The notes: generated by a model not told the origin, from the letters alone. A DNA stretch of 36,197 nt from an uncultured Candidatus Saccharibacteria bacterium (GCA_964373495.1 CAYJUW010000001.1:1-36197); one strand, 5' to 3'; counted from the stretch's first letter, positions 19,898 to 20,037 are shown. Numbers and translations: made by a program.

Positions 19898-20037
19898 ACC
19901 GCACCGCACGCGGTGCGGTATATGATTTTGAACGAGATCCCTCGTCCCGCTTTCGGCGGGACTCGGGATTATTGTTTGTTCCCGCCATTCATCCGCGCCG
20001 CCCAGCGGCGCGGTATTCTGGCGGACAAACAATAAAA
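19898..20037. repeat. Three-hairpin structured element, copy B
   Basis: 138/140 nt identical to 28710-28849 by hand alignment. Hairpin coordinates are given in the findings. Confidence 0.9.

Follow-up and report, generated by a model that had tools for sequence, protein, structure and literature searches.

A three-hairpin repeat of a Candidatus Saccharibacteria genome as a probable gene-less derivative of the IS200/IS605 family

The window analyzed in this study is a stretch of 36,197 nucleotides from an uncultured Candidatus Saccharibacteria bacterium (GCA_964373495.1, CAYJUW010000001.1:1-36197). It harbors two nearly identical copies of a short element folding into three hairpins, and we assign a probability of about 0.8 to the reading that this element is a non-autonomous, gene-less derivative of the IS200/IS605 family, namely, a MITE-like PATE that is mobilized in trans by a Y1 TnpA. 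An initial annotation, made from the sequence of the window, had offered several options: a small RNA (sRNA) gene, a 3' untranslated region (3' UTR) or intercistronic RNA module, or a non-autonomous mobile element such as a MITE or an IS200/IS605-type palindrome-associated element. It is the last option that agrees with the data, which show (i) the characteristic anatomy of the ends, (ii) a fixed target, TTTAT, (iii) insertion without target-site duplication, (iv) covariation between guides and cleavage motifs, (v) the same left end (LE) on insertion sequences that carry tnpB and a related one on an element with tnpA and tnpB, and (vi) presence/absence polymorphism.

RESULTS AND DISCUSSION

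Copies A and B and their limits

Copies A and B had been placed at positions 19898-20037 and 28710-28849, with 138 of 140 bases identical. This count is exact; the two differences are located at 19907/28719 (C/T) and 19922/28734 (A/C), and identity stops abruptly at both sides, where the flanks are unrelated. The three hairpins drawn for each copy were also recovered, and the fold was compared with dinucleotide shuffles on both strands, resulting in z values of -9.5 and -10.3 for RNA and of -9.2 for DNA. Both copies are intergenic, as had been reported, and are flanked by minus-strand genes. The claim that no ORF with a start codon is present does not hold literally, since mechanical ORFs with TTG or GTG starts cross both copies (19798-20391 on the plus strand, 28517-28855 on the plus strand, and 28593-28844 on the minus strand), without evidence of coding. 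The number of copies was likewise extended, since the window contains, in addition to A and B, a diverged third copy (C) and an end fragment (D), which are described below.

As to the extent of the element, the core stands, but the left limit had been set too short, and the last bases at the right are likely target. Copy A starts at 19891 (ATGAA, TTA, and then the hairpin), and copy B starts at 28694 (ATGAA and a 12-nt linker shared with metagenome relatives). The rightmost ATAAA of each copy (20032-20036 in A, 28844-28848 in B, 18126-18130 in C, and 20723-20727 in D) is most likely the retained insertion target and lies outside the element. Copy A is a full-length PATE of 141 nt (19891..20031) with its top strand on the minus strand of the window; the tip of its right end (RE), ATGAA plus TTA, corresponds to the family consensus ATGAA-NNN-hairpin. 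Copy B (28694..28843, minus strand; 150 nt) is also full length and equals copy A except for the two substitutions and an RE linker of 12 nt (28699-28710) instead of 3 nt. Because the same long linker recurs in metagenome relatives (loci L143, L151, L169, and L174; several of the relatives with this linker are from groundwater metagenomes), copy B is considered a full-length variant and not a truncated one. Its guide, GATA (28731-28734), is intact, its cleavage motif TTCAT is found at 28694-28698, and its target TTTAT (ATAAA on the plus strand) is found at 28844..28848, all on the minus strand. The substitution at 19922 converts the right-end guide of copy A from GATA to TATA. A search of metagenomes for the empty site of copy A gave no match.

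Anatomy of the element on its top strand

The active strand (top strand) corresponds to the minus strand of the window, which is the reverse of the orientation used in the initial annotation. Read on this strand, the left side consists of TTTAT, at the end of which the element begins, a linker of 8-9 nt, GCC, AGAATA, the hairpin IPL, ATGAAT, and GGC, and the right side consists of one or more variable filler hairpins, a 4-nt guide, the hairpin IPR, a linker, and TTCAT, TTCAC, or TTTAT, with which the element ends. In copy A, the LE covers 19970..20031 (minus strand) and comprises a 9-nt linker, GCC, AGAATA, IPL (19993-20013), the loop ATGAAT (19987-19992), GGC, and the outer stem. The LE guide GL, AATA, is formed by the last four bases of the loop AGAATA and corresponds to plus-strand positions 20014-20017. 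The filler hairpin (19937..19969, minus strand), which was the second hairpin of the initial annotation, differs in sequence and number between lineages and may be the counterpart of the second small LE hairpin of IS608, ISDra2, and IS605 (PMC5934647). The RE of copy A (19891..19922, minus strand) contains the guide GR, TATA (19919-19922), IPR (19899-19918), the linker TAA, and the cleavage motif TTCAT (19891-19895). In Syntrophaceae and CPR lineages, the 3-nt linker after this hairpin on the top strand is TAG, followed by TTCAY or TTTAT; in the window it is TAA in copy A and is replaced by the 12-nt linker in copy B.

The hairpins are thus subterminal at both ends on one strand, and the element ends are not inverted repeats. 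LE and RE hairpins have the same orientation, are similar within each lineage, and are identical in the metagenome locus L181. The LE hairpin shows compensatory change: in 84 distinct LEs, 92% of the cells pair, seven of the nine pairs vary on both sides, and none of 500 shuffles attained the observed score.

Insertion target and empty alleles

Of 131 distinct insertion sites, 113 have ATAAA at a distance of 6-11 nt behind the core, compared with about 2% expected by chance, and at 98 of those 113 sites the distance is 8-9 nt. A target-site duplication, for which the initial annotation had suggested looking, is absent, and the opposite (left) junctions never repeat ATAAA. The fact that ATAAA is kept and is not repeated at the other junction indicates that insertion occurs 3' of TTTAT and that the target is left behind without duplication.

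Further information on insertion was derived from the MAG of the Syntrophaceae bacterium UBA2188, in which an empty allele (flank, ATAAA, flank) is present beside the filled allele at two scaffold joints marked by N (L058, approximately 4440-4480, and L083, minus strand; approximately 100-140 nt before the core). Filled and empty alleles share 25 nt that start exactly at ATAAA, and this pattern is the trace that would be left where a de Bruijn graph forks between the two alleles. These empty alleles, which were deduced from scaffold joints in a MAG and not from reads, indicate that the insertions are polymorphic within the population.

Guides and cleavage motifs change together

In IS608 of Helicobacter pylori, the cleavage site is read by the four bases directly 5' of the hairpin foot, and the pairs are GL AAAG with TTAC and GR GAAT with TCAA (PMC3201880, PMC5934647); the cuts are made at a distance of 19 nt from the left hairpin, on its 5' side, and of 10 nt from the right hairpin, on its 3' side (PMC3201880). 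We applied the IS608 mapping, in which guide positions 1-4 correspond to cleavage positions -3, -4, -2, and -1, to the family. The LE guide AATA is invariant and fits the target TTAT under this mapping. Right ends show joint changes of guide and cleavage motif, and the combinations GATG/TTCAC, GATA/TTCAT, and AATA/TTTAT are observed. Among the genomes, 24 of 28 distinct right ends follow the rule (written on the opposite strand, GTGAA/CATC 13, ATGAA/TATC 8, and ATAAA/TATT 3), and there are 4 exceptions. An independent set of metagenome right ends, which were chosen solely by the right-end hairpin of the window, contained 30 ATGAA/TATC, 10 ATAAA/TATT, 4 ATGAA/TATT, and no ATAAA/TATC combinations (Fisher P = 4e-7, a value that is inflated by relatedness, since the counts from neither genomes nor metagenomes are phylogenetically independent).

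The element of the window shares with IS608 the subterminal hairpins without terminal inverted repeats, a short fixed target that lies 5' of the insertion, is not duplicated, and stays behind on excision, and a 4-nt DNA guide that is located directly 5' of each hairpin foot and pairs with the cleavage site. The distances of 19 and 10 nt in IS608 compare with 17-18 nt (target to IPL foot) and 3-12 nt (IPR foot to cleavage motif) here. There are also differences from IS608: (i) the window element has neither tnpA nor tnpB; (ii) the target is the pentanucleotide TTTAT instead of TTAC; (iii) the LE hairpin is enclosed in an outer stem, so that the guide and the 3' flank form a symmetric 6x6 internal loop; and (iv) position -2 is a Watson-Crick T:A pair, whereas it is A:A in IS608.

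A second point of reference is ISGst1-5 of Geobacillus stearothermophilus, which are members of the IS605 family with the TAM TTTAT (TnpB2) or TTCAT (IscB) and whose gene-less PATE copies are mobilized in trans by one tnpA; in the Geobacillus IS605 elements, the TAM/TEM and the DNA guides covary (Meers et al. 2023, PMC10055086). In these respects, that is, in the TAMs, the gene-less PATEs, and the guide covariation, the window element resembles ISGst1-5, a comparison that is made by description and not by sequence. The hosts differ, since the present family resides in uncultured anaerobes, CPR bacteria, cyanobacteria, and archaea.

Relatives that carry tnpB or tnpA

Downstream of the exact 22-base LE core, tnpB was found at three loci. 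In the first of them (L081, Crocosphaera chwakensis CCY0110), the core lies immediately upstream of an ORF of 500 amino acids that we identify as TnpB because it contains the Pfam domains OrfB_IS605, Cas12f1-like_TNB, and HTH_OrfB_IS605. The tnpB behind the core at a second Crocosphaera locus (L060) is 84% identical, whereas that on an IMG/VR viral contig (L120) is just 26% identical. A third Crocosphaera locus (L019) has a decayed tnpB behind the core and represents an intermediate between a full insertion sequence and a PATE.

An annotated autonomous IS605 element with tnpA and tnpB (L121), located on a plasmid of Desulfosarcina sp. BuS5 (NZ_CP087953.1), possesses a related but diverged LE, which reads TTTAT followed by CTACCC-GCC-GAGAAGA-hairpin-ATGAAT-CGGC; its RE reads GAAG-hairpin-AGC-ATTCAC. 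Common to this element and that of the window are the target TTTAT and an LE composed of GCC, a purine-rich loop, the hairpin, ATGAAT, and (C)GGC, and its RE (guide, hairpin, 3 nt, TTCAC) is built as in the PATEs of Syntrophaceae and Anaerolineales. Unlike the window element, it is autonomous, with an annotated Y1 tnpA and tnpB, its 5' loop is GAGAAGA and not AGAATA, its linker measures 6 nt instead of 8-9 nt, and its hairpin contains a bulged T. From the LE core upstream of tnpB and the related LE of this IS605 element, we conclude that the third hairpin of the initial annotation is an IS200/IS605 LE. The guide/cleavage pair at the RE is GAAT/TCAA at the first Crocosphaera locus (L081), the very same as that of IS608, and GAAG/TCAC on the viral contig (L120) and in the Desulfosarcina element (L121).

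We found no Y1 tnpA in the 36-kb window or beside any of the 119 listed loci with the exact core. A tblastn search of 120 loci with approximate TnpA sequences of IS608 and IS200 as queries gave no match, and the ORFs between inverted copy pairs (L024 and L040) included no transposase by eye. With the annotated TnpA of the Desulfosarcina element as the query, there was one match, to an unrelated IS200-like element (L133, 2880-3400). The hairpin of this tnpA element (CCCCGCCTGTAAGGGCGGGG) is like the right-end hairpins of PATEs from Syntrophales and Nitrospiraceae. Its ends are GGAAAT-hairpin-ATGAGA at the left, with TTTAA as the TAM, and GAAA-hairpin-TTC-TTCAT at the right, and it obeys the guide rule (TAM TTTAA, guide AAAT). 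It is a candidate for the type of transposase that mobilizes the family.

The lack of a transposase gene beside any of the listed copies would also be compatible with a repeat of the REP/REPIN type, spread by a domesticated single-copy RAYT (TnpA-REP) and not by the transposase of an insertion sequence. Common to REP/REPIN sequences and the window element are hairpins that lie in many copies between genes and whose mobility presumably depends on a Y1 HUH enzyme acting in trans, and some genomes indeed contain numerous copies (UBA2188 has at least 25). REPs are distinguished by a conserved GTAG 5' of a short palindrome and occur as single copies or inverted doublets. In the present family, no GTAG is conserved 5' of the palindrome, and two unlike ends, each with its own guide and cleavage motif, are present instead of an inverted doublet. 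These ends are shared with insertion sequences carrying tnpB, and the same LE flanks such elements in Crocosphaera and in a virus. Even though RAYTs are Y1 HUH enzymes acting on hairpins as well (PMC8266576), we consider spread by a RAYT improbable and favor mobilization by an IS200/IS605 TnpA.

The occurrence of full-length relatives with tnpB raises the question of whether gene-less copies persist as sources of omega RNAs for a TnpB acting in trans, that is, as RNA-guided homing modules. According to Meers et al. (2023, PMC10055086), omega RNAs are frequently encoded by PATEs. The longer PATEs of the family (approximately 195 nt in UBA2188 and approximately 300 nt in Crocosphaera) keep approximately 120-200 nt on the RE side, whereas the copies of the window keep just approximately 65-75 nt. 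TnpB omega scaffolds are larger than this, and there is no tnpB in the 36-kb window. Persistence of the family as a source of guide RNAs is thus a very unlikely explanation, and such a role seems unlikely in particular for the copies of 141-150 nt in the window.

Other assignments were rejected. A homing unit was considered on account of a stand-alone GIY-YIG domain ORF of 97 amino acids (28945-29238, minus strand) located approximately 95 nt from copy B; using tblastn, the gene was found near no other locus. On the grounds of anatomy alone, we discarded (i) integron attC sites (there are no R' or R'' motifs), (ii) class C group II introns, whose insertion sites lie behind terminators (a GUGYG start is missing, and the length is much too small), (iii) IS91/Helitron-like ends, and (iv) the bridge RNA of IS110 elements (the loops are invariant where variable ones are expected, and no recombinase is present).

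Distribution among prokaryotes

To retrieve further copies, as the initial annotation had advised, we scanned one genome per species (596 Gb) with both loop-bearing strands (GCCATTCATCC, 10-30 nt, GGTATTCTGGC) and obtained at least 119 loci with the exact LE core. Hosts among the matches listed were Syntrophales, Desulfobacterales, Anaerolineales, Nitrospiraceae, Ignavibacteriales, Aminicenantes, Saccharibacteria and other Patescibacteria, Crocosphaera, Methanosarcinales, and Woesearchaeota, as well as others. In total, more than 100 gene-less copies of 100-350 nt were found in Desulfobacterota, Chloroflexota, Patescibacteria, Cyanobacteria, Nitrospirota, and archaea, and the sequence shared across lineages has the same length of 100-350 nt. 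By chance, the 22-base pattern should occur once or twice in 596 Gb; three loci (L051, L066, and L075) have no hairpin in the spacer, are likely chance matches, and were not accepted as family members. The UBA2188 MAG contains at least 25 nearly identical copies of 195 nt with sharp borders and unrelated flanks, and the closest relatives of the window element are found in a Saccharibacteria MAG. Together with a second repeated hairpin that the window shares with a Saccharibacteria MAG, they make a Saccharibacteria origin of the window probable from the repeats as well. The 22-base LE module (GCCAGAATACC...GGATGAATGGC) is identical in Methanosarcinales, Woesearchaeota, Patescibacteria, Cyanobacteria, and a virus; outside this module, the element is unrecognizably different between these lineages. 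A blastn comparison of the element with plasmids resulted in chance-level matches only, and a megablast comparison of 13 kb of the window with phages gave no match.

No recurrent protein family was detected among the neighbors of the copies when the 845 ORFs lying up to 2.5 kb from 128 copies were clustered all against all, and the orientation with respect to the neighboring genes is random across genomes (++ 18, -- 24, +- 7, and -+ 9). Sharp borders, the presence in many genomes, the lack of a linked gene, and the random orientation together point to a small mobile DNA element and not to a cis-acting RNA.

These data bear directly on the view that the hairpins act at the level of RNA, as parts of either a structured small RNA or a cis-acting module (5' or 3' UTR or intercistronic). 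Such a role would be in line with the very stable fold, with the strong covariation of the stem, and with the co-orientation of all window copies with the flanking genes. There is also a sub-threshold match to the Rfam family RF01729 (Termite-flg) at 28752-28854 on the minus strand, which is the top strand of the element (27 bits compared with a gathering threshold of 40; E = 0.013). The two have in common a layout of outer stem, internal loop, and hairpin followed by a second hairpin. Given this score and the differing loop sequences, membership in Termite-flg was rejected; Termite-flg, for its part, might represent the end of a transposon. At the gathering thresholds, the Rfam search of the window returned tRNAs only, in agreement with the earlier statement that no Rfam family covers the element. 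The numbers of G-T and A-C mismatches in the apical stem (10 versus 16) do not clearly point to a transcribed strand. Presence/absence polymorphism and abrupt borders with unrelated flanks also argue against such a role, and the same module forms the end of insertion sequences that carry tnpB. Taken together with the random orientation, the lack of a linked gene, and the lack of an Rfam family at threshold, these observations make an RNA function very unlikely, and the sRNA, 3' UTR, and intercistronic options were abandoned in favor of the mobile element.

Two loci contain single-hairpin mini-elements, ATGAACAA-hairpin-TATTCTGGC (L173, approximately 6060-6110, and L193, approximately 1340-1390). 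In both, a single hairpin has the 5' flank of a right end and the 3' flank of a left end, which is reminiscent of a recombination between IPR and IPL; these mini-elements may be the smallest mobilizable form.

Proposed mechanism and significance

The enzyme and the route of transposition proposed here are modeled on IS608. A dimer of a Y1 (HUH) TnpA encoded elsewhere would bind both hairpins on single-stranded DNA. Each guide would pair with its own cleavage site, and the top strand would be cut after TTTAT and after TTCAT. The element would be excised as a single-stranded circle, the donor would be precisely resealed, and the circle would then be re-inserted 3' of another TTTAT.

The element had been presented as the best candidate in the window for something undescribed. 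This was too strong, since its kind is well known, and no new kind of system is revealed. As to this particular family, we found no paper describing it, and a literature search with the core sequence gave unrelated primers only. A more far-reaching view, to which we give little credence, is that the copies belong to an unnamed IS605 clade spanning many prokaryotic phyla, that its LE module possibly has a second role, and that the copies in CPR bacteria are perhaps moved by a foreign transposase. The conservation of the LE module exceeds the known need of hairpin binding by TnpA, and a second role could therefore exist. It could consist, for example, of pairing between the ATGAAT loop and the TTCAT cleavage motif in the synaptic complex or of a function at the RNA level in the expression of tnpB. 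In the reduced genomes of CPR bacteria, such as the present one, transposition of the copies might depend on an enzyme that is not encoded by their own cell.

The relevance of the assignment to the IS200/IS605 family is severalfold. (i) An apparent orphan structured RNA becomes an annotated mobile element, which guards against misannotation as an sRNA or riboswitch. (ii) The target TTTAT, the LE core, and the guide/cleavage pairs provide rules for finding the family elsewhere. (iii) The relatives form a natural series that leads from full insertion sequences with tnpB via decayed ones to elements of 141 nt and to minimal elements with a single hairpin. (iv) For the DNA-guide rule of IS605, the family offers naturally occurring covariation data. 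(v) There is evidence of active (polymorphic) elements in uncultured anaerobes and of the presence of the family in CPR bacteria. (vi) The conservation of the LE module at the nucleotide level across very distant phyla is a notable property of the family.

Copy C, fragment D, and the position behind terminators

Copy C (17988..18125, minus strand) is diverged, with approximately 60% identity without gaps, but has kept the LE core, the IPR hairpin (17988-18007), and the guide GATA. The changes in its stems are compensatory, and its 6x6 internal loop has the same bases as that of A and B. Beyond its right hairpin there is no recognizable TTCAT cleavage motif, and copy C is for this reason probably immobile. 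Some of the copies may be dead, namely, A, with its mutated RE guide (TATA), and C, without a cleavage motif. Fragment D (20710..20727, minus strand) consists of the outermost 13 nt of the LE (TGGCAGACAAACA, 20710-20722) and the target ATAAA. The sequence at 20673-20683 (GGTATTCCCGC), upstream of fragment D, may be a further remnant.

The targets of A and D are made by the T-tails of intrinsic terminators, detected by scanning, of the upstream minus-strand genes: the target/TAM of copy A (TTTAT, ATAAA on the plus strand; 20032..20036, minus strand) belongs to the T-tail of the terminator of gene 20095-20463, and fragment D lies directly behind the terminator of gene 20756-21262. The target of copy C (TTTAT, 18126..18130, minus strand) is situated 3' of an inverted repeat with a T-run (approximately 18138-18183), which was missed by the terminator scan and reads as the terminator of gene 18197-18616. 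Since terminator T-tails plus AT supply TTTAT, the position of A, C, and D right behind terminator-type hairpins is accounted for. All four copies of the window have one orientation, which is co-directional with most genes. A bias of the top strand toward the lagging-strand template is expected for the family, but the proxies for the replication strand conflict: the GC skew, with G enriched on the plus strand, points opposite to the gene orientation, which is mostly that of the minus strand, and the window shows no replication origin.

Genomic context and other repeats of the window

The window corresponds to an ordinary bacterial chromosome with two tRNA genes and with genes mostly on the minus strand, which code for FtsW, MurD, an MraY-like transferase, DnaK, DnaJ, GrpE, HrcA, ScpA/B, and a class II aminoacyl-tRNA synthetase (Pfam tRNA-synt_2, D/K/N group). 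Of ten ORFs that were searched, six lacked a Pfam match (17296-17949, 18197-18616, 19326-19688, 20095-20463, 20756-21262, and 27345-28304, all on the minus strand), and a seventh (18658-19305) had a sub-threshold match only. Five of these six, along with ORF 18658-19305, fall within 17296-21262, and copies C and A and fragment D are all located between the ORFs of this segment, which looks like a variable, insertion-tolerant island beside the genes for tRNA-Ala and tRNA-Lys.

Two other repeats were observed. The first is a perfect palindrome of 32 bp (AATACTTAAATACTGTACAGTATTTAAGTATT) with four copies, one of them a variant, and unrelated flanks (1856-1887, 10050-10081, 10652-10683, and 24710-24741). 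Two of the copies bracket a gene for a TrpR-like helix-turn-helix protein (10096-10617, minus strand) between scpA and scpB, and the other two are in frame inside murD and the gene of a PMT_2 glycosyltransferase, where both translate as ..YLNTVQYLSI... The palindromes may serve as operators, or they may represent a second, tiny mobile palindrome whose insertions stay in frame; they were absent from all 207 loci compared. The second repeat is a hairpin (CCCCGTTAGA-loop-TCTAACGGGG) at 3847-3881, 20617-20645, and 28181-28215 (and at 3884-3908 and 20645-20669), which is followed by GTAACGGGGTTTAC at two sites. This hairpin is also present in a Saccharibacteria MAG (L098, 1051-1080).
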